A DNA stretch of 64,000 nucleotides from Defluviitaleaceae bacterium (lineage in GTDB: Bacteria > Bacillota > Clostridia > Lachnospirales > WQUN01), in NCBI GenBank assembly GCA_009787785.1, contig WQSR01000009.1, forward strand, positions 3,638-67,637, read 5' to 3'. A program made the position numbers and the translations under genes. Positions within the stretch are counted from its first letter, which is position 1. Each line of letters starts with the position of its first letter. This document shows, piece after piece, positions 35,673 through 46,207 of this stretch. The notes under the pieces are model-generated. The model searched no databases. It had not been told where the DNA came from and saw nothing but the letters and a program-made list of their open reading frames with translations.

Positions 35673-36980
35673 ATGGCTACAGGTGTATTGATGCCGAAGG
35701 CGGGCATATCGGTTGAAAGCTGTATTATCGGCACATGGCACAAACAGCCCGGCGACCCTGTCCAGATGGGTGACATCCTCTTCGATTATGAAACGGACAA
35801 GGCTACCTTTGAGTGCGAGTCTACGGCAGTGGGGCATCTCATTGAAATTTTTTTCCAGAGCGGCGACGAGGTGCCGTGCTTGACGGTTGTGTGCGCCGTG
35901 GGGCAACCGGGCGAGGATGTTTCCGGTTTGAAGACCGGTAGCCCGCCCGTATCCGAACCCGTACCCGCATCTGCACCCGCACCCGTATCCACGCCTTCCA
36001 TAGTTGAGCCTTCCATAGCTGAGACTTCCATAACCGCGCCGCCCGCAGTGCAAGCCGGCTCCGGTATAGTGGGTGCCGTGTCCCCCCGCGCCAGAAAATT
36101 AGCGGAACGCTTGCGGGTGGATTTGCAATATGTCACCCCCACGGGCCCCCGGGGACGCGTCATCGAAAGGGATATCCAGACGGCGGCGCGTACGCTGAAA
36201 ACCGGGGACGGCATCGGCGGCCGCAGGCAGGACGGTTTTATCGGTGGGGCGGGTGCCGCTTCGGGGGTTTCTCTTGCCGCCGGCGCGGGATATACCGACG
36301 AAAAAATGTCCCCCATCCGCAAGGTTATCGCCAAATCCATGCTCAAATCCCTTACGGAAATCGCACAGCTCACCCATGTACATTCCTGCGACGCCACGGT
36401 TTTGCTAAGCCTACGGCGGCGTTTCAAAGATTCCGGCAAAGGTCTTGAGGGTATTTCCCTCAATGACCTTGTTATATTTGCCGTTGCGCGGACACTGGCC
36501 GCCCACCCCGATTTAAACGCCCACTTGGTCAATGGGGATACCTTGCGTAGGTTCAACGGGGTGCATTTGGGCATGGCGGTGGATACGCCCCGGGGCTTGC
36601 TGGTGCCGACGATTTTCAATGCCGACAAAATGAGCCTTTTGCAATTGTCGGCGGCAACAAAGGACGTAGCCGACATGGCGAAATCCGGTAGCATCAGCCC
36701 GGATTTGTTGCAGGGCGCGTCCTTTACCGTATCCAATTTAGGCGCGCTGGGGGTGGAAATGTTCACCCCGGTGATAAATCCGCCCCAGGTGGCGATTTTG
36801 GGTGTGTGCGGACTTTCCCCCAAGGTGAAGGAAGAAAATGGGAAAATTGCGGTGTATCAAAGCATGGGGCTGGCCCTGACTTACGACCACAGGGCCGTGG
36901 ACGGCGCACCCGCCTCGCGGTTTGCCGCCAATCTGGCCAAGAATCTGGAAAATATAGATTTGCTAATGATGTCTTTATAA
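35673..36980 (+). CDS. Dihydrolipoamide acyltransferase (E2) of a 2-oxoacid/acetoin-type dehydrogenase complex
   Basis: 435 aa. One lipoyl domain (ETDKATFE), a Pro/Ala linker, a subunit-binding domain (SPRARKLA...GPRGRV), and a catalytic domain with DHRAVDG. Confidence 0.93.
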   Translation: MATGVLMPKAGISVESCIIGTWHKQPGDPVQMGDILFDYETDKATFECESTAVGHLIEIFFQSGDEVPCLTVVCAVGQPGEDVSGLKTGSPPVSEPVPASAPAPVSTPSIVEPSIAETSITAPPAVQAGSGIVGAVSPRARKLAERLRVDLQYVTPTGPRGRVIERDIQTAARTLKTGDGIGGRRQDGFIGGAGAASGVSLAAGAGYTDEKMSPIRKVIAKSMLKSLTEIAQLTHVHSCDATVLLSLRRRFKDSGKGLEGISLNDLVIFAVARTLAAHPDLNAHLVNGDTLRRFNGVHLGMAVDTPRGLLVPTIFNADKMSLLQLSAATKDVADMAKSGSISPDLLQGASFTVSNLGALGVEMFTPVINPPQVAILGVCGLSPKVKEENGKIAVYQSMGLALTYDHRAVDGAPASRFAANLAKNLENIDLLMMSL

Positions 36981-36993
36981 GAAGGTGAAAGCC

Positions 36994-38364
36994 ATGTCCC
37001 AACGGCATAGCGATGTACTGATTATCGGCGGCGGCCCCGCCGGATATCTGGCCGCAGAAAGAGCGGCCCAGGGCGGCCTGACGGTGACGCTGTTTGAGAA
37101 ACGCGCCATGGGTGGCGTGTGCTTGAATGAAGGATGCATCCCCACGAAAACCCTTTTGCACTCCGCGAAAATCTACGAAACCGCCTTAAAAGGCGGCGCG
37201 TATGGCGTCACCGCCGACAATGTAAGGCTGGACCACAACGCCGTAGTCACCCGCAAGGACAAGGTAGTGAAAATGCTTGTCTCCGGTGTGGAAGGCAAGA
37301 TGAAGGCGGGCAAAATATCCGTAATAAAATCAACTGCGGTTATAAACGAAAAAAACGGAGCCCATTTTATCGTGGAAGGGGCGGGGGAAAAATACAGCGG
37401 GCGGTATATATTGCTTGCCGCAGGTTCAGAGCCCATGATTCCTCCCATACCCGGCTTGAAGGAAGGGCTCGAAAAGGGCTTCGCCGTAACCAGCCGCGAA
37501 ATCCTCGAACTGCGGGAAATACCTGAAAAGTTAACGGTTATCGGCGCGGGGGTGGTGGGCTTGGAAATGGCGGCCTACTTCGCCACGGCAGGGTCGAAAG
37601 TCAGCGTCATTGAAATGACGGAAAAGATTGCCGGCTACACCGACGCGGAAATCGCCAGCATCCTGTTGAAGGACATGCAACATAGAGGCATTGATTTCAA
37701 GCTGGGGTGCCAAGTGACCGGATTGTCCCCCGGCTCCGTTACCTATGAGAAAAACGGCAAGGCCGAAAAACTGTCAACCGACTGTGTGCTCATCGCCATA
37801 GGCCGCCGCCCCACGATTCAAAACTTGGGCTTCGAGAAATTAAACATCCACACAGAGCGGGGCGCAATCCCCACGGACAATCAACTGCGCACCAATGTTT
37901 CCGGTGTATACGCCATAGGCGACATCAACGGCAAAAGTATGCTGGCCCATACCGCCTACCGGGAGGCCGAGGTCGCCGTCAATCACATTTTGGGTAAAAA
38001 GGACACCATGCGCTATGACGCGATTCCGGCGGTGATTTACACCGCCCCCGAGGTCGCCGGGGTGGGGGAAACGGAGGAATCCGCCCGGGAAAAGGGACTG
38101 GCCTTTTCCGTGAAAAAATTATCCACGCGCTATTCCGGGCGTTTTGTGGCGGAGAACGACAAAGCCGACGGCTTATGTAAGCTTCTTATCGAAAACGGTA
38201 CGGAACGTCTCATCGGCGCGCATTTGATTGGCCCCTATGCCTCGGAAATGATTTACGGGGCGTCTATGATGATTGAGTCCCGCTGGCCGGTGGGCGATTT
38301 GAAGGAACTGGTCTTCCCCCATCCCACGGTGAGTGAAATTATACGTGAAACATTCTTTAATTAA
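36994..38364 (+). CDS. lpd: Dihydrolipoyl dehydrogenase (E3)
   Basis: The ATG at 36994 follows AGAAGGTGA. FAD motif IIGGGPAGY, redox disulfide GGVCLNEGCIPTK, and the C-terminal interface HPT.SE. Confidence 0.95.
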   Translation: MSQRHSDVLIIGGGPAGYLAAERAAQGGLTVTLFEKRAMGGVCLNEGCIPTKTLLHSAKIYETALKGGAYGVTADNVRLDHNAVVTRKDKVVKMLVSGVEGKMKAGKISVIKSTAVINEKNGAHFIVEGAGEKYSGRYILLAAGSEPMIPPIPGLKEGLEKGFAVTSREILELREIPEKLTVIGAGVVGLEMAAYFATAGSKVSVIEMTEKIAGYTDAEIASILLKDMQHRGIDFKLGCQVTGLSPGSVTYEKNGKAEKLSTDCVLIAIGRRPTIQNLGFEKLNIHTERGAIPTDNQLRTNVSGVYAIGDINGKSMLAHTAYREAEVAVNHILGKKDTMRYDAIPAVIYTAPEVAGVGETEESAREKGLAFSVKKLSTRYSGRFVAENDKADGLCKLLIENGTERLIGAHLIGPYASEMIYGASMMIESRWPVGDLKELVFPHPTVSEIIRETFFN

Positions 38365-38385
38365 TTCCCAAAAGGAGTAAAAATC

Positions 38386-40851
38386 ATGCCCAAATCCCTG
38401 CACATCAGTCCTGCCGAGTTGAAAAAAACCGGTAAAATTACCTTCAAGGACATTCCCGTAAACAGCTACAAAAAAACCGCAAAGCAAGCGCGGAAGGATT
38501 TTTCCGATGCGGAGCTGGTGCGGATTTACCGCGATATTACGATACTGCGCGAGTTTGAGCATATGCTCAACCAGATAAAAACCCAGGGTGTGTACAGCGG
38601 CATCGAGACCCAATACCCCGGCCCCGCCCATTTGTCTTTGGGGCAGGAGGCCGCCGCCGTGGGCCAGGCGTATCTGCTGGACAAGGATGACTTCATCTTC
38701 GGTAGCCACCGCAGTCACAGCGAAATTCTGGCGAAATCCCTGTCCTGCATCGAAAAGCTAAGCGACAAAGAACTCATGGAAATCATGGAGAATTTCCTGG
38801 GTGGGCGCATATTGAAGACCCTGACGAAAATATACAAGCATTCCTCCGTGAAGGAGCTGGCCATTACCTTCATTATATATGGCACGCTGACGGAGATTTT
38901 CGCCAGGGAGAACGGCTTCCATATGGGGCTTGGCGGCTCTATGCACGCCTTTTTCCTGCCCTTCGGCGTGTACCCCAACAACGCCATTGTGGGCGGCTCG
39001 GGGCCGGTGTCCATCGGCGGCGCGTTGTACAAAAAATGCAACAATAAGAAGGGCATCGTGGTGTGTAATATCGGCGACGGCTCTTTGGGATGCGGGCCTG
39101 TGTGGGAAGCCTTGAATTTCGCCGCCATGGGGCAGTTTGATACCCTGTGGAAGGATAAGCCCGGCGGCCTTCCCATTATTTTTAATGTTTTTAATAACGG
39201 CTACGGCATGGGTGGCCAAACCAGCGGCGAAACCATGGCCTATGATATGCTGGCGCGCCTGGGCGCGGGCGTGAACGCGGAGCAGATGCACGCCGAGCGG
39301 GTGTGGGGCAACGACCCGCTGGCGGTAATTGACGCTTACAAACGCAAAAAAGCCATCATTAAGAAAAACGGCGGCCCCGTGCTGTTGGATGTGGTCACTT
39401 ACCGTCATTCCGGGCATTCCACCTCGGACCAAAACGCCTACCGTTCCAAGGAGGAAATGGACGAATGGTTCGCCCTGGACCCGTGCACGGTTTTCCGCAA
39501 TGAACTGGTGGAGGCGGGGGTCGCCGCCGACGGAGTTTTCGACGACATCTGGACGCAAACCCGGGAACGCATGAAGCAAATTTGCCAATGGGCCTCCAGC
39601 GAAGAGATTTCCCCCTACATGGATTTGAAAAAAGACCGCGCCGCCGTGGAACGCATTATGTTTTCGAATACGAAAATCCCCGTCCTTGGAAAGGAAAAGC
39701 CGGTTGTGCTGATTCCCAAGGAGGAATGCTCACGGGTGAAGCAAATCGCGGGCAAGGAGCGGTTCGCCCTTAAAAATGGCAAGCCCGTGAGCAAGATGAA
39801 ATGCTACAACTACCGCGACGCCATTTTTGAGCCCATTTTGGATAAATGCTACGAGGATTCCTCGTTGATACTCTATGGTGAGGACGTGCGGGACTGGGGC
39901 GGGGCCTTCGCGGTATACCGCGGCCTGGCCGAGGTTTTGCCCCATTCCAGATTGTTCAACGCGCCCATTTCCGAGGCCGCCATTGTGGGCAGTGCCGTGG
40001 GCTATGGGCTTTGCGAGGGCCGTGCGGTGGTAGAGCTTATGTATTGCGATTTCATCGGTAGGGCAGGGGACGAGATATTCAATCAGCTTTCGAAATGGCA
40101 ATCCATGAGCGCGGGTATTTTAAAGATGCCTGTGGTATTGCGGGTTTCCGTTGGGTCGAAATACGGTGCCCAGCATTCCCAGGACTGGACCGCGCTGTGC
40201 GCCCACATTCCGGGGTTGAAGATTTGCTTCCCCGCCACGCCCTATGAGGCCAAGGGCCTGATGCAAACCGCGCTGAACGGCACCGACCCCGTTGTATTTT
40301 TCGAGAGCCAGCGGCTCTATGATATGGGCGAGCAATTCCAGGAAGGCGGCGTTCCCGCCGAGCCCTACGAGCTGGAAATCGGCGACGTGAACGTGGTGCG
40401 CACGGGCAAGGACATTACCATTTTGACCATCGGCGCGACGCTGTACAAAGCCGTGGAAGCCGCAGAGATTTTGAAGGATACATTCGGCATGGAAGCGGAT
40501 ATTATCAACCTGTACAGCCTTGTCCCCCTGGACTATACGAAAATCGTGGCGTCGGTGAAGAAGACCGGGAAGCTGGTGCTGGCCTCCGATGCCTGTGCGC
40601 GGGGCTCCTTCCTGAGCGACATTGCGCGGAATGTAACCGAGCTGTGCTTCGACGATTTGGACGCGCCGCCGGTGGTGGTGGGTGCGAAAAACTGGATAAC
40701 CCCGCCCTTTGAGTTCGATGAATTTTTCTTCCCCCAGGCGGGCTGGATTCTGGACGCGATAAACGAAAGCATCATCCCGCTACCCGGCCATGTACCGGTT
40801 GAAAGCTTTACCGTGATGGAGCAACTACGCAAGGCTAAACTGGGGGTTTAG
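38386..40851 (+). CDS. Fused E1 alpha-beta thiamine-diphosphate-dependent dehydrogenase component
   Basis: 821 aa. The N-terminal half is E1-alpha-like (HLSLGQEA...GDGS...N.YG). The C-terminal half is E1-beta/transketolase-pyrimidine-like (FNAPISEAAIVG...) with a transketolase_C domain. Confidence 0.88.
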   Translation: MPKSLHISPAELKKTGKITFKDIPVNSYKKTAKQARKDFSDAELVRIYRDITILREFEHMLNQIKTQGVYSGIETQYPGPAHLSLGQEAAAVGQAYLLDKDDFIFGSHRSHSEILAKSLSCIEKLSDKELMEIMENFLGGRILKTLTKIYKHSSVKELAITFIIYGTLTEIFARENGFHMGLGGSMHAFFLPFGVYPNNAIVGGSGPVSIGGALYKKCNNKKGIVVCNIGDGSLGCGPVWEALNFAAMGQFDTLWKDKPGGLPIIFNVFNNGYGMGGQTSGETMAYDMLARLGAGVNAEQMHAERVWGNDPLAVIDAYKRKKAIIKKNGGPVLLDVVTYRHSGHSTSDQNAYRSKEEMDEWFALDPCTVFRNELVEAGVAADGVFDDIWTQTRERMKQICQWASSEEISPYMDLKKDRAAVERIMFSNTKIPVLGKEKPVVLIPKEECSRVKQIAGKERFALKNGKPVSKMKCYNYRDAIFEPILDKCYEDSSLILYGEDVRDWGGAFAVYRGLAEVLPHSRLFNAPISEAAIVGSAVGYGLCEGRAVVELMYCDFIGRAGDEIFNQLSKWQSMSAGILKMPVVLRVSVGSKYGAQHSQDWTALCAHIPGLKICFPATPYEAKGLMQTALNGTDPVVFFESQRLYDMGEQFQEGGVPAEPYELEIGDVNVVRTGKDITILTIGATLYKAVEAAEILKDTFGMEADIINLYSLVPLDYTKIVASVKKTGKLVLASDACARGSFLSDIARNVTELCFDDLDAPPVVVGAKNWITPPFEFDEFFFPQAGWILDAINESIIPLPGHVPVESFTVMEQLRKAKLGV

Positions 40852-40852
40852 T

Positions 40853-41923
40853 ATGCTGACGCAAATTATTCCGGCGTTGCGGATGCTGTATTCCCTGGAA
40901 ATGGGGCGGCTGGCGACGGCGACATTCCATGCCGGGGCGCAGGACGGGGAGCTGACCCTCAGCGAGGAGAACAATTTTTCGGATGTAGACATAAAAAAAT
41001 CATTTCAGGATTATTGCAAATCCGGGGGCGTACCCCCCCAGCGTGTTGTAGTGGGGATCATGGGCGTTGTCGAATTGGCTTGCCACGCATCCCCCGGAGG
41101 ACGCCTGGCCGGGAAAATCGCCATCGTTACGGGCAGTGCCCAGGGCTTCGGCAAGGGCATCGCGGAAGCCTTGGCCGCCGAAGGCGTGTATGTGGTCATC
41201 GCTGACATCAACGCCGGGGGCGCGGCGGAATGTGCCGCCGGGCTGAATGAAAAATATGGGGCGTACCGTTCCCTTCCCGTTGCGGTCAACGTGACCGACG
41301 AAGCCTCCGTGGAAAACATGGTGCGCGAAACCGTCTTGGCCTATGGCGGCTTGGATATTTTGATTTCCAACGCGGGGGTAGTGCGCTCGGGCAATTTATT
41401 TGAGTTGACCAAGGAAAATTTCGAATTTGTGACGGCGGTGAACTATACCGCCTTCTTTTTATGCGCCAAGCACGCCGCCGCTGTGATGAAACGCCAGCAC
41501 GACATCACCCCGGCTTTTCCCGCCGATATCATTGAAATAAATTCAAAATCCGGCCTGGAGGGTAGTAATAAGAATTTTGCCTACGCGGGGAGCAAGTTCG
41601 GCGGGATTGGCCTGACCCAGTCCTTCGCCATGGAATGCATCGAGTATGGCATAAAGGTCAACGCCGTGTGCCCGGGGAATTTCCTGGACGGCCCCCTGTG
41701 GGCGGACCCGGTGAACGGGCTGTTCAAGCAATATCTGGACGCGGGCAAGGTGAAGGGCGCGAAGACCATCGCCGATGTGCGCAAATACTACGAAAGCCGC
41801 GTGCCCATGGGGCGCGGCTGTGAAATCGCCGACGTGGCCCGCGCCATCTTCTACGCGGTGGAGCAACAATACGAAACGGGCCAGGCCATTCCCGTGACGG
41901 GGGGGCAGGTGATGCTGAAATGA
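40853..41923 (+). CDS. Short-chain dehydrogenase/reductase (sorbitol-6-phosphate-dehydrogenase-like) with an N-terminal extension of about 95 aa
   Basis: SDR core: GKIAIVTGSAQGFG, NAG, and YAGSK as the YxxxK catalytic motif. The ATG at 40853 lies 1 nt after the E1 stop. The extension has no recognised family. Confidence 0.8.
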   Translation: MLTQIIPALRMLYSLEMGRLATATFHAGAQDGELTLSEENNFSDVDIKKSFQDYCKSGGVPPQRVVVGIMGVVELACHASPGGRLAGKIAIVTGSAQGFGKGIAEALAAEGVYVVIADINAGGAAECAAGLNEKYGAYRSLPVAVNVTDEASVENMVRETVLAYGGLDILISNAGVVRSGNLFELTKENFEFVTAVNYTAFFLCAKHAAAVMKRQHDITPAFPADIIEINSKSGLEGSNKNFAYAGSKFGGIGLTQSFAMECIEYGIKVNAVCPGNFLDGPLWADPVNGLFKQYLDAGKVKGAKTIADVRKYYESRVPMGRGCEIADVARAIFYAVEQQYETGQAIPVTGGQVMLK

Positions 41924-43068
41924 TAAACAATCACATCCACACGATTTATTCCTTTTCGCCCTACACCCCAGCGACGGCGGTGCGCCTTGCCAAGGAAAAC
42001 GGATTGCAAACCGCCGGCATCATGGACCACGACAGTGTGGCTGGTTTGCGGGAATTTATCCGGGCCGGGCAGGAAGAGGGCATCGGCGTGACGGTGGGCT
42101 TCGAGTTGCGCACCTGCTTCAAGGGCACGCCCTTTGCGGGGCGGCGCATTAACAATCCCGACCAGGATTCGGTGGCGTATTTGGCCATGCACGGCATCCC
42201 CCATGATAAAATCGACGCGGCCGACGCCTTTTTGAAGCCGTACCGGGAAGCGCGGAATATCCGCAACCGGAGGATGACCGAGAAGCTGGATGCCTTCGTC
42301 CGAGGGGCGGGGCTGGCAATGGATTTCGACAAGGACGTGTTGCCCCTTTCCCAGCATGAAAAAGGCGGCTCAGTTACCGAGCGGCATATCCTCTTCGCGC
42401 TGGCGGAAAAAACAATGGGGCAGGTGGCCCCCGGCCCGGCTACCATTGCTTTCTTGAAAGACCATTTCGGCATCGAAGCAAGGGGAAAAAACCTGCAAAT
42501 GCTCAGTGACTCCGGCAACGCGTGGTACGCCTATTATTTGCTGGGCGTGCTGAAAGCGGATATGATGGCGCATTTTTACCTTGACGCGGACGCAGAATTG
42601 CCAGATTATAAGAATTTTATTTCCCTGGCCGAAGAAATCGGCGCGATTCCCGCCTATGCCTATTTGGGTGATGTGGGCGACTCCATTACAGGAGATAAAA
42701 AAACGCAGAAATTTGAAGATGAATTTTTGGATGAACTCATTATTTTTTTGAAGGAAGCCGGATTTAGAGCCATTACCTACATGCCGGCAAGGAACACAAG
42801 TGAACAACTTGCGCGTTTAATTACACTATGCGAGCAACATGAAATATTCGAAATTTGTGGCGAGGACATCAATTCCCCCTTCCAGCCCTTCGTGTGCAAG
42901 GAGCTCGAAAGGGCGGAATACAAGCATCTTGTGGACGCCGCCTGGGCGTTGATTGGCCATGAGAAGGCGGGCTTCGGCGCGGGGTTGTTTTCCCAAGGGG
43001 CGATACACAATTATCCCGCCCTGAAGGAACGCGTAAAACATTTTGCAAATATGGGGAGAGCGCGATGA
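41920..43068 (+). CDS. PHP-domain (polymerase/histidinol-phosphatase-like) metal-dependent phosphoesterase
   Basis: 382 aa. N-terminal NNHIHTIYS His motif and GIMDHD. ATGA overlap with the SDR stop. Confidence 0.7.
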   Translation: MINNHIHTIYSFSPYTPATAVRLAKENGLQTAGIMDHDSVAGLREFIRAGQEEGIGVTVGFELRTCFKGTPFAGRRINNPDQDSVAYLAMHGIPHDKIDAADAFLKPYREARNIRNRRMTEKLDAFVRGAGLAMDFDKDVLPLSQHEKGGSVTERHILFALAEKTMGQVAPGPATIAFLKDHFGIEARGKNLQMLSDSGNAWYAYYLLGVLKADMMAHFYLDADAELPDYKNFISLAEEIGAIPAYAYLGDVGDSITGDKKTQKFEDEFLDELIIFLKEAGFRAITYMPARNTSEQLARLITLCEQHEIFEICGEDINSPFQPFVCKELERAEYKHLVDAAWALIGHEKAGFGAGLFSQGAIHNYPALKERVKHFANMGRAR

Positions 43069-44321
43069 AAACAAAAGCGGTTCGATTGTATGGCGTGGAC
43101 GACTTGCGGCTGGAGGAATTTGAACTACCTCCCGTAGGCGCGGAGGAATTGCTGGTGAAAATCGTCGCGGATTCCGCGTGTATGTCCACCTACAAAGCGG
43201 TAAAGCAGGGAAGCGCGCACAAGCGCGTGCCGGACAATGTCCATGAAAATCCTGTCATTGTGGGCCATGAGTTCTGCGGGGAAATAGTGGAAGTGGGGCA
43301 AAATCTGGCCGGACAATATCAGCCCGGACAGAAATTCACCATGCAACCGGGGATGAAGGGCACCATGGAGGCGGCGGGATATTCCTTCCCGCACCTCGGC
43401 GGCAATATGACCCACGGGATTATCCCCAAATGTTATTTTGACCAGAGCTGTGTATTATTATATGAAGGGGAGGGTTTTTTCCACGGCTCACTGACGGAGC
43501 CCCTCTCCTGCGTGATTGGGGCCACCCGCGCCAATTATCACACCCGCCAAGGGGAATATATCCACGACATGGATATAAAAGAAGGCGGAAATATGGCCAT
43601 CTTGGGGGGTTGCGGGCCCATGGGCTTTGCCCATATTGATTATATTTTGCACCGCGACCGGAAGCCGGGCCTGCTGGTGGTTACGGATGTGAAGCAGGAT
43701 AATCTTGACGCGGCGGCGGCGGCTCTTACTGTGGCGAATGCCTTAGAAAACGGCATAAAGCTGGTTTATTTTAATCCCGCGTCCTCCCCTGACCCGGTGG
43801 GAGAGCTCATGAAGCTGACCCATGGGCGCGGGTACGATGACGTTTTCGTATTTTTCCCCCTGGCTGGGCTGGTGGAGCAAGCCGACGCGATACTGGCCAA
43901 CGATGGATGCCTTAATTTTTTTGCCGGGCCAGCGGATACGGCGTTTTCCGCGAAATTGAATTTCTACAATGTGCATTACAACGCCACCCATGTGGTGGGC
44001 ACCAACGCGGGCAACATCGACGACATGAAAGAAGCCTTGGCCATGGCGGCGGCGGGGAAAATTAACCCCGCGGTGCTGGTCTCCCACGTGGGGGGGCTGG
44101 ACGCGGTTGCGGAAACGATTCTAAACCTGCCCGGCATACCCGGCTTCAAAAAGTTAATCTACAATGAAATTTCCATGCCTCTCACCGCGATAAAAGATTT
44201 TGCGGATAAAGGGGAAAAATGTCCGTTTTATAAAACATTAGCGGATATATGCAAGCAAAATAATGGCCTTTGGAGTGTTGAAGCGGAAAAATATCTATTG
44301 GAACACGCGCCAAGGCTGTAA
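43065..44321 (+). CDS. Zinc-type medium-chain dehydrogenase/reductase (L-sorbose-1-phosphate-reductase-like)
   Basis: 418 aa. Motifs CMSTYK...GHEFCGEIVEVG and the Rossmann motif GGCGPMG. ATGA overlap upstream. Confidence 0.8.
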   Translation: MKTKAVRLYGVDDLRLEEFELPPVGAEELLVKIVADSACMSTYKAVKQGSAHKRVPDNVHENPVIVGHEFCGEIVEVGQNLAGQYQPGQKFTMQPGMKGTMEAAGYSFPHLGGNMTHGIIPKCYFDQSCVLLYEGEGFFHGSLTEPLSCVIGATRANYHTRQGEYIHDMDIKEGGNMAILGGCGPMGFAHIDYILHRDRKPGLLVVTDVKQDNLDAAAAALTVANALENGIKLVYFNPASSPDPVGELMKLTHGRGYDDVFVFFPLAGLVEQADAILANDGCLNFFAGPADTAFSAKLNFYNVHYNATHVVGTNAGNIDDMKEALAMAAAGKINPAVLVSHVGGLDAVAETILNLPGIPGFKKLIYNEISMPLTAIKDFADKGEKCPFYKTLADICKQNNGLWSVEAEKYLLEHAPRL

Positions 44322-46207
44322 TGAACGCGGATAATATTATCTTCATCGAAATGGAAAGCCGTGACGCCGCTTTCCATTTTTCGCTTGAGGAATATTTAAT
44401 GCAGGGGCATGTCCACGGCACAGCGGATATCATGATGCTCTGGCAGGTTGACCCGTGTGTGATGCTGGGCAACAATCAAATTGCCCAGGCCGAAGTGGAT
44501 ACGCATTTCGCACAGCGCGAGGGGATTCAGCTTACGCGCCGTTCCAGCGGGGGAGGGGCGATTTACGCCGACGGGGGGACGTTATTTTATACCTGGATTT
44601 CGTGCCACGCTTCACCGGAATCCGCTAAGGAACAATTCGCGGATTCCATCGTGGACGCATTGACCGGCATGGGCATCCCCGCGAAAAAGGAAGGCCGCAA
44701 TGACATCTGCGTGGAGGGGAAAAAAATCACGGGCATGGCCCAATACGCAAGGCACGGCAGGATTTGCACCCACGGTTCCCTGCTATATGACACAGATTTG
44801 GAAAAGCTTGCCTGTGTCCTGCAACCGGACAATAAAAAATTTCAGGGGAAGGCTGTGCGCTCGGTGCGCAGTCGGGTGGGGAATGTAAAGGATATCGCGG
44901 GCTTGACCCGCAACTCCCTAAGCGAAACTACCATCGGCAAATTCAAAACGAAATTAAAACACAAATTATTGCACGAAAAGAAATTTATCGAATATTCCCT
45001 GACAAAAAATGACATTCACGAAATAAACAAAATAAATAAAAACAAATACGCGAACCCTGTTTGGACCTTCGGTCACGCGCCGAATTTTACTTTTCACAAC
45101 AGCAAGCGTTTCCCCGGCGGCACAGTGGGGATATATATAAATGTAGAAAAAGGCGTGGTGCAGGATTGCGCCATTCGCGGGGATTTTTTGGGCATCGCCC
45201 CCATAAATGAACTGGAGCGGCACTTCATAGGCAAGCCCTTCCGGTACGACGCCCTTTGCGACAGCATCAACGGCGTAGAGCTCCAGCCCTACCTGGGCAA
45301 TATCAGCCGGGACGAATTTTTATCCCTCCACGCACCGGAGCGCAAGCCGGACTGGCTACGCCTTCGCCATGTTGAAAACCCCAATCAGGAATATGTTGAA
45401 AAAATTTTGCGCGAAAATAACCTGAACACCGTATGCCGCGAGGCCAACTGTCCCAACCAAGGAGAATGCTTCTCCCAAAAAACCGCGACTTTTATTATTA
45501 TGGGGACACACTGCACGCGGAGCTGTCGTTTTTGTAATATTCAAAATGGCCCGCCCAAGCCCCTCGACTCCGGCGAGCCCCAACGCGTGGCCAATGCGAT
45601 AAAATCGCTGGAATTGAAATACGCGGTCATCACCTCGGTGACGCGGGACGACTTGCCCGACGGCGGCGCGGCCCATTTCGCCAAAACCATCGCGGAAATC
45701 CGCAAGGCCACCCCGGAAACCCTCATCGAGGTGCTGATACCCGATTTCGCCGGGGATTTCGCCGCCCTCAAAACCGTAACGGACGCCACCCCCGACGTAA
45801 TCAGCCACAACATGGAGACCGTGGCCTCCCTCTACGATATTGTCCGTCCCCAAGCCGGGTACCGCCGTTCCCTGGAAATAATCCACAAAATAAAGCAGTT
45901 AAATCCCCGTATCCGCACAAAAAGCGGCATCATGCTGGGCATGGGCGAAACCGACGAAGAAATCCACGCCGTTATGCGCGACCTGCGGGAGGCGGACTGT
46001 GCAATTTTGACCATCGGGCAATATCTCCCGCCTTCTGACCGCCACCACCGTGTGGCGGAATATGTAACGCCGCAAAAATTCGAGGCATGGGGCGTGGCGG
46101 CCCGGGAAGCCGGCTTCGCCTTCGTGGCGTCCGCGCCCCTCGTCAGGAGCTCCTTCCGCGCAGGTGAGGCGGGCAAACTACTCCCACTAAACGGAGGCAT
46201 ACAATGA
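44321..46207 (+). CDS. Fusion protein: lipoate-protein ligase A (LplA) N-terminal half and lipoyl synthase (LipA) C-terminal half
   Basis: 628 aa. Residues about 1-330 are LplA-like (RRSSGGGAIYADGG...KITGMAQ). Residues about 335-628 are LipA, with the auxiliary cluster CREANCPNQGEC, the radical-SAM motif CTRSCRFC, and the C-terminal RSSF. Confidence 0.85.
   Translation: MNADNIIFIEMESRDAAFHFSLEEYLMQGHVHGTADIMMLWQVDPCVMLGNNQIAQAEVDTHFAQREGIQLTRRSSGGGAIYADGGTLFYTWISCHASPESAKEQFADSIVDALTGMGIPAKKEGRNDICVEGKKITGMAQYARHGRICTHGSLLYDTDLEKLACVLQPDNKKFQGKAVRSVRSRVGNVKDIAGLTRNSLSETTIGKFKTKLKHKLLHEKKFIEYSLTKNDIHEINKINKNKYANPVWTFGHAPNFTFHNSKRFPGGTVGIYINVEKGVVQDCAIRGDFLGIAPINELERHFIGKPFRYDALCDSINGVELQPYLGNISRDEFLSLHAPERKPDWLRLRHVENPNQEYVEKILRENNLNTVCREANCPNQGECFSQKTATFIIMGTHCTRSCRFCNIQNGPPKPLDSGEPQRVANAIKSLELKYAVITSVTRDDLPDGGAAHFAKTIAEIRKATPETLIEVLIPDFAGDFAALKTVTDATPDVISHNMETVASLYDIVRPQAGYRRSLEIIHKIKQLNPRIRTKSGIMLGMGETDEEIHAVMRDLREADCAILTIGQYLPPSDRHHRVAEYVTPQKFEAWGVAAREAGFAFVASAPLVRSSFRAGEAGKLLPLNGGIQ

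Follow-up and report, generated by a model that had tools for sequence, protein, structure and literature searches.

The window analysed here, a stretch of 64,000 nucleotides from contig WQSR01000009.1 of a Defluviitaleaceae bacterium, carries a fused lpl(AB)-lipA gene (44321..46207) whose product joins a lipoate-protein ligase to the lipoyl synthase LipA. All window features described below lie on the forward strand. Translation of frame 1 over 44321-46207 gave 628 open codons with zero internal stops, bearing out the single 628-aa open reading frame (ORF) that an earlier reading of this DNA, made from the sequence only, had claimed. The ligase catalytic domain covers residues 15-214 (44363..44962; Pfam PF21948 LplA-B_cat, E 4e-50) and contains the RRSSGGG loop (44537-44557, within RRSSGGGAIY at residues 73-82) and the catalytic Lys135 (44723-44725, the first residue of KITGMAQ at 135-141). 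It is followed by the LplB-type accessory C-terminal domain of the ligase (residues 254-336, 45080..45328; PF10437 Lip_prot_lig_C, E 1e-24). Alignments to fused and split relatives, at both the protein and the DNA level, delimited a junction of five residues, HAPER (337-341, 45329..45343), with the last ligase helix (EFLSL) on one side and the LipA entry motif KPDWLR on the other. The LipA lipoyl synthase module occupies residues 342-617 (45344..46171), of which residues 392-555 match the Pfam Radical_SAM domain (E 1e-16). Its auxiliary cluster cysteines C372/C377/C383 form a CX4CX5C motif (45434-45469; CREANCPNQGEC, residues 372-383), its radical-SAM cluster cysteines C398/C402/C405 a CX3CX2C motif (45512-45535; CTRSCRFC, residues 398-405), and the terminal RSSF, the C-terminal serine ligand motif, is found at residues 609-612 (46145-46156).

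The NCBIfam models agreed with this layout. TIGR00545 (lipoate-protein ligase) scored 332 bits over the ligase half for a cut-off of 280, and TIGR00510 (lipA) 359 bits over the LipA half for a cut-off of 310. The best single match, NF053790, spans the full length (model positions 10-605), with 682 bits against a cut-off of 800. The LplA motifs and accessory domain that the sequence-only reading had placed in the N-terminal half are all present, as are the LipA hallmarks that it had placed in the C-terminal half. In the product of the window gene, five residues link a complete Lpl(AB)-type ligase and a complete LipA.

This gene is the seventh of a conserved cassette organised as E2, E3, fused E1 alpha-beta, short-chain dehydrogenase/reductase (SDR), PHP, zinc alcohol dehydrogenase-like (Zn-ADH-like) and fusion. 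The E2 acyltransferase (35673..36980), which carries the one lipoyl domain detected in the genome, has its lipoyl-lysine K43 in a DKA motif (35799-35801). The genes between E2 and the fusion were assigned with Pfam: E3 (36985-38364), the fused E1 alpha-beta of 821 aa (38386-40851), the SDR (40853-41923), the PHP-domain protein (41920-43068) and the Zn-ADH-like protein (43065-44321). The fused gene shares bases with both neighbours: its ATG overlaps the Zn-ADH-like stop codon upstream (TAATG), and its TGA the ATG of the following gene (ATGA), just upstream of which stands a GGAGG; with overlaps at both ends, the fused gene is therefore translationally coupled on both sides. The seven-gene order is common to all fused relatives and was seen at four loci; a further locus has the same order with split lplA and lipA genes.

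The window's own genome is a metagenome-assembled genome (MAG) of 2.66 Mb in 99 contigs, 97% complete. Searching this genome, we detected a single LplA/LipB-family domain (PF21948), which is that of the fused gene and is accompanied by the accessory domain, together with one LipA, one biotin/lipoyl domain and one E2 core. The E2 of the operon is thus the only lipoyl acceptor found in the genome, in line with the earlier claim that the fusion sits inside the operon of its presumed only client. GcvH was not found in this 97%-complete MAG, nor was any LipB/LipM-type transferase; FabF, FabZ and the biotin carboxyl carrier protein (BCCP) were likewise not found in it. Type II fatty-acid synthesis is apparently lacking in the host, one acyl carrier protein (ACP) being kept. 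Two other routes to the lipoyl cofactor were considered and rejected. A LipB/LipM octanoyltransferase route is at odds with the accessory domain carried by the sole PF21948 domain and with the failure to find FabF, FabZ and BCCP, and a LipS-type synthase was discarded on the score of the LipS2 model NF053743 (22.9 bits for a cut-off of 270).

Both halves retain their catalytic residues. Human LIAS, T. elongatus (Thermosynechococcus) LipA2 and 5exi can be aligned with the LipA half over its whole length, and in that alignment C372/C377/C383, C398/C402/C405 and RSSF 609-612 are all kept. Similarly, RRxSGGG and the Lys of G-K-K-I-T-G (K135) are kept when the ligase half is aligned to the solved ligases 8cri, 5ij6, 1vqz and 5iby. 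Among 116 fused proteins, R73, R74, G77-79, K135, the six cysteines, R609, S610 and S611 are invariant, the RSS(F/Y) motif is kept throughout, and the GRND motif and accessory domain of the ligase half are invariant or intact. The loss of essential LplA residues on alignment, about which the earlier reading had cautioned, was not observed, K135, R73, R74 and G77-79 being intact. The structure predicted by AlphaFold with an alignment of fused proteins has a mean predicted local distance difference test (pLDDT) value of 89.4, with values of 75-79 at the HAPER junction, and its sole disordered internal stretch is a surface loop of the catalytic domain (residues 173-177).

The fusion architecture and the ligase-then-LipA logic are already known. 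When the full-length protein was searched, more than 120 protein clusters turned out to share its Pfam architecture, the named sources including Izimaplasma, Xianfuyuplasma and Prevotella, and NCBI curators recognise the type under NF053790 (LplA_LipA_fuse, "bifunctional lipoate--protein ligase/lipoyl synthase"); the novelty implied by the sequence-only reading was therefore overstated. The NF053790 proteins of Prevotella, Izimaplasma and Xianfuyuplasma (about 607-615 aa) resemble the window protein in their module order (ligase catalytic domain, accessory domain, LipA), in their short junction ending KPD(W/Y)L and in their invariant catalytic residues, but they are only ~40% identical to it overall and ~31% over the LplA half. 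The window protein and five fused relatives at 53-63% identity to it form what we call clade A. On NF053790, whose cut-off is 800 bits, Prevotella proteins score 1067, Izimaplasma 919-921, a third lineage 736-750 and clade A 649-682 bits (649-675 for the five relatives of the window protein). A sample of 300 genomes of the window's phylum held no full-length fusion of this kind. A full-text literature search found no paper on a natural LplA-LipA fusion of either the window or the NF053790 type, and the fusions mentioned by Tanabe et al. 2023 lie only within the ligase (PMC10332631). What is new here is an independent recent lineage below the NF053790 cut-off, a split-gene ancestor in the same operon, a genome with one enzyme and one client, and a mis-annotation at NCBI.

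To analyse the origin of the window lineage, each half was searched on its own. Many stand-alone LipAs share 60-67% identity with the LipA half, and stand-alone ligases 50-55% with the ligase half; these relatives are often on the same contigs (Treponema, Defluviitaleaceae, Synergistaceae and Lachnospiraceae MAGs). The median identities to stand-alone proteins are 63% (LipA) and 49% (LplA), compared with 51% and 31% to NF053790-type fusions. In maximum-likelihood trees built for each half, clade A is monophyletic (support 86 for LipA, 97 for the ligase), and its six fusions form together with 33 stand-alone proteins one clade with a support of 100 in the LipA tree and 99 in the ligase tree. 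The remaining fusions were placed elsewhere in both trees, in at least two or three groups. Constraining all fusions to a single clade cost 154 log-likelihood units and was rejected by the approximately unbiased (AU) test (p = 1.5e-58). Membership of the window protein in the NF053790 lineage was thus rejected on the identities of its halves, its score of 682 bits, both half-trees and the AU test.

The closest split relative lies in the Defluviitaleaceae MAG Emb289P1bin126 (WQVF01000003.1), where the same cassette, in the same gene order, encodes a 333-aa LplA and a 279-aa LipA (53% and 66% identical to the respective halves). The two genes there are separate, in different frames and overlapping by 11 nt, unlike the one continuous frame of the window gene. 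DNA alignment located a net frame change inside this 11-nt overlap between the fused genes and the split pair. One fused relative (L023) retains, three codons before KPDW, an in-frame ATG that corresponds to the lipA start site of the split genes, and in the window gene only the five residues HAPER are left of the ligase tail and the LipA start. Similar adjacent but separate lplA-lipA pairs were found in MAGs of termite-gut Treponema and Oscillospiraceae. Scanning the GTDB species representatives retrieved one further fused copy of the window lineage (Defluviitaleaceae Co191P1bin64) and many adjacent split pairs. Given the score below the NF053790 cut-off, the grouping with stand-alone pairs and the split operon in a Defluviitaleaceae MAG, the window fusion is therefore independent of the Prevotella/Izimaplasma fusions and recent, having arisen in a small lineage of Defluviitaleaceae type. 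A net shift of one base in the frame, where adjacent lplA and lipA genes overlap, would have produced the fused gene. Ligase-LipA fusions appear to have arisen at least three times. At five loci of Terrisporobacter and Peptostreptococcaceae genomes, lipA comes first and lplA follows within a few bases, the reverse of the order in the window; the lplA/lipA linkage was therefore assembled more than once.

Other fusions of LipA to its upstream enzyme exist in the sample from the window's phylum. In genome G185 (C335:8300-11800, minus strand) an 821-aa ORF comprises an Lpl(AB) ligase, a cysteine-rich DUF116 domain and a complete LipA, and in genome G285 (C7:118500-121200) an ORF of ~508 aa comprises a LipB-type catalytic domain without accessory domain and a complete LipA. 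As in the window fusion, LipA is covalently joined there to the enzyme making its substrate, but the partner or inserted domain differs and the pattern of NF053790 matches indicates no shared descent. Candidate fusions in three further genomes (G007, G058 and G266) were rejected, the long open frames upstream of their LipA being high-GC non-coding read-through.

Taken together, these results lead us to propose, with a probability of about 0.78, that one polypeptide of recent and independent fusion origin carries out the whole lipoyl-cofactor assembly for the operon E2. The N-terminal Lpl(AB) module would use ATP to activate free octanoate, lipoate probably being accepted as well, and would then attach the acyl chain to the E2 lipoyl domain at Lys43. 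The C-terminal LipA module would subsequently insert sulfur at C6 and C8 by radical SAM chemistry with its auxiliary [4Fe-4S] cluster. Because no octanoyl transferase was found and there is apparently no octanoyl-ACP supply, the LipA half would be fed only via ligation of free octanoate to E2. The fusion would provide equal amounts and proximity of the two activities in a self-contained, transferable dehydrogenase cassette. In E. coli, LplA together with octanoate bypasses lipB.

The intact residues, the sole client and the failure to find a LipB/LipM-type transferase, FabF, FabZ or BCCP all support the ligate-octanoate-then-sulfurate route suggested by the sequence-only reading; that octanoate is used, that ligation comes first and that fusing brings any kinetic gain are inferences. 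The same reading had presented ligase and LipA as belonging to alternative routes. This is not strictly so: Lpl/LipA combinations occur in 14% of bacterial genomes, where they were read as cooperating on free octanoate, and the ligases of clade 2 seem to work together with LipA, the genes usually sharing an operon (Tanabe et al. 2023, PMC10332631). The cooperation described in that work follows the scheme proposed here, ATP-dependent octanoate ligation and then sulfur insertion by LipA, but it involves separate proteins, whereas the window genome encodes the two as one covalent unit, and no other lipoate enzyme was found in it. The sLpl(AB)-LipS1/LipS2 pathway (PMC10332631) is comparable in acting ligase-first on free octanoate or lipoate, in adjoining a dedicated client and in being thought mobile as a unit; it differs by its two-protein LipS1/LipS2 synthase in place of LipA and by a ligase of a different clade. 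Among NF053790-type fusions, that of Izimaplasma HR1 adjoins its client as the window gene does: it heads a glycine-cleavage operon comprising gcvT, gcvH, gcvPA, gcvPB and lpdA (locus L020, 10001-17442). The NF053790-type fusion of Prevotella rectalis stands alone.

Several points weigh against the one-polypeptide proposal. In a MAG of 99 contigs, the absences listed above mean not found rather than proven, and one ACP and two sub-threshold FabH-like genes do exist in the genome. The AlphaFold model has a predicted template modelling score (pTM) of 0.61: the modules are well folded but their mutual orientation is not confident, so that neither a fixed two-site geometry nor the channelling suggested by the sequence-only reading gains support from it. 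As to the origin, the group constrained in the AU test was named after the tree had been seen. Moreover, the trees show clade A as reciprocal sister to the stand-alone group, and the direction of the event (fusion and not fission) consequently rests on outgroup parsimony and one fossil ATG. The literature searched held no biochemical or expression data on the window protein or on any LplA-LipA fusion. Finally, should the habitat be rich in lipoate, the ligase half would be enough by itself.

The best-placed alternative is one that we consider unlikely. According to it, the ligase would serve salvage, mainly attaching scavenged lipoate, LipA would act independently (as a back-up, or on octanoyl-E2 made by another route), and the fusion would be a neutral accident with no functional coupling. 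LplA-type ligases generally accept lipoate, the junction is of the kind expected from a single indel at an 11-nt gene overlap, and the pTM of 0.61 indicates no fixed interface between the modules, all of which speaks for this alternative. However, no other octanoyl-transfer enzyme was found in the genome, and the LipA half is the better conserved one within clade A (61-71% identity, against 46-58% for the ligase half). Since it is the better-conserved half and keeps every cluster ligand, LipA must be in use and under selection, and it needs an octanoyl substrate. The apparent recurrence of ligase-LipA fusions and the existence of other fusions of LipA to an upstream enzyme (G185, G285) further argue for a selective benefit of fusing.

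The difference in conservation could also be taken to mean that one half is catalytically dead and has become a mere docking module for the lipoyl domain, for example a ligase half that presents E2 to LipA. Among Defluviitaleaceae-type copies the ligase half (46-58% identity) indeed evolves faster than the client E1 (85-88%) as well as faster than the LipA half, and the His that follows GGGAIY is replaced by Ala. This position also varies in solved active ligases, though (D in 5ij6, L in 6jom), and the ligase half has kept K135, RRxxGGG, GRND and its accessory domain. In the ligase tree, the fused ligase halves have branch lengths like those of stand-alone ligases, and the genome has no other detected enzyme able to load E2. 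We regard a dead half as very improbable.

We also checked the continuity of the reading frame. The only NCBI product for the locus is a 301-aa LipA (45302-46207), corresponding to residues 329-628 with a Met instead of Ile328. The codon at this start is ATC and no stop lies upstream of it in the window frame; the NCBI version is therefore a truncated call from a non-canonical start and not a different sequence. An exact look-up retrieved the same 628-aa protein as a gene call on 3 contigs (JGI/IMG, Logan and ENA). The five fused homologues of clade A, which come from other assemblies, are single ORFs with differing junction sequences, all in frame. From residue 320 to the auxiliary-cluster cysteines, the window sequence has no in-frame ATG or GTG, so a separate complete LipA cannot begin at a canonical start codon; one in-frame TTG (Leu363) occurs in that stretch, where an obvious ribosome-binding site is absent. 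Two true genes merged by a sequencing error in a MAG, for which the 301-aa NCBI product beginning at residue 328 and the net one-base frame change relative to the closest split pair might speak, are thus the least probable explanation, given the ATC start required, the three sources, the five diverged homologues in frame and the lack of a canonical lipA start. The annotation gap is wider than this locus: the NCBI record reduces the fused gene to a 301-aa LipA, and the NF053790 cut-off misses both the window lineage and the third lineage.

Returning to the one-polypeptide proposal, a "Rosetta-stone" fusion of this kind links ligase-type octanoate attachment to LipA and favours Lpl/LipA pairs as a biosynthetic route and not as salvage alone. 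Because the window fusion arose independently of the catalogued fusion family, the coupling would have been selected repeatedly. More tentatively, and with slightly less than even confidence, we suggest that the fused enzyme serves as maturation module in a lipoyl-dependent dehydrogenase cassette that is self-sufficient and horizontally mobile, building its cofactor from free octanoate in a host without fatty-acid synthesis or other lipoate metabolism, and that the repeated fusions (at least three) might reflect a real hand-over of substrate, the E2 lipoyl domain going from the ligase to the LipA site within one polypeptide. The genome is a clean test case, as it has one ligase-synthase and a single client, and the fused gene is a candidate compact single-gene tool to install lipoylation in heterologous hosts.

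The cassette (35673-46207 in the window, and seven further loci) was observed in termite-gut-type Defluviitaleaceae, Treponema and Oscillospiraceae MAGs. It is rearranged in the Treponema and Oscillospiraceae MAGs, and it often stands beside rhamnose-type genes (RhaA, class II aldolase, kinase). Its substrate may be a deoxy-hexose-derived compound or pyruvate. A relaxase gene was noted near one copy. In the window's genome, the two FabH-like genes lie on contig C22 (~10.6-20 kb), with 100-109 bits for a cut-off of 292, together with a weak FabF-like stretch. The window SDR (40853-41923) has an N-terminal extension of ~87 aa with no Pfam match, possibly an aldolase remnant; in the split-gene relative (L025, 2097-4046), a 649-aa protein of the RhaD-aldolase/ADH type combines the SDR with a class II aldolase.

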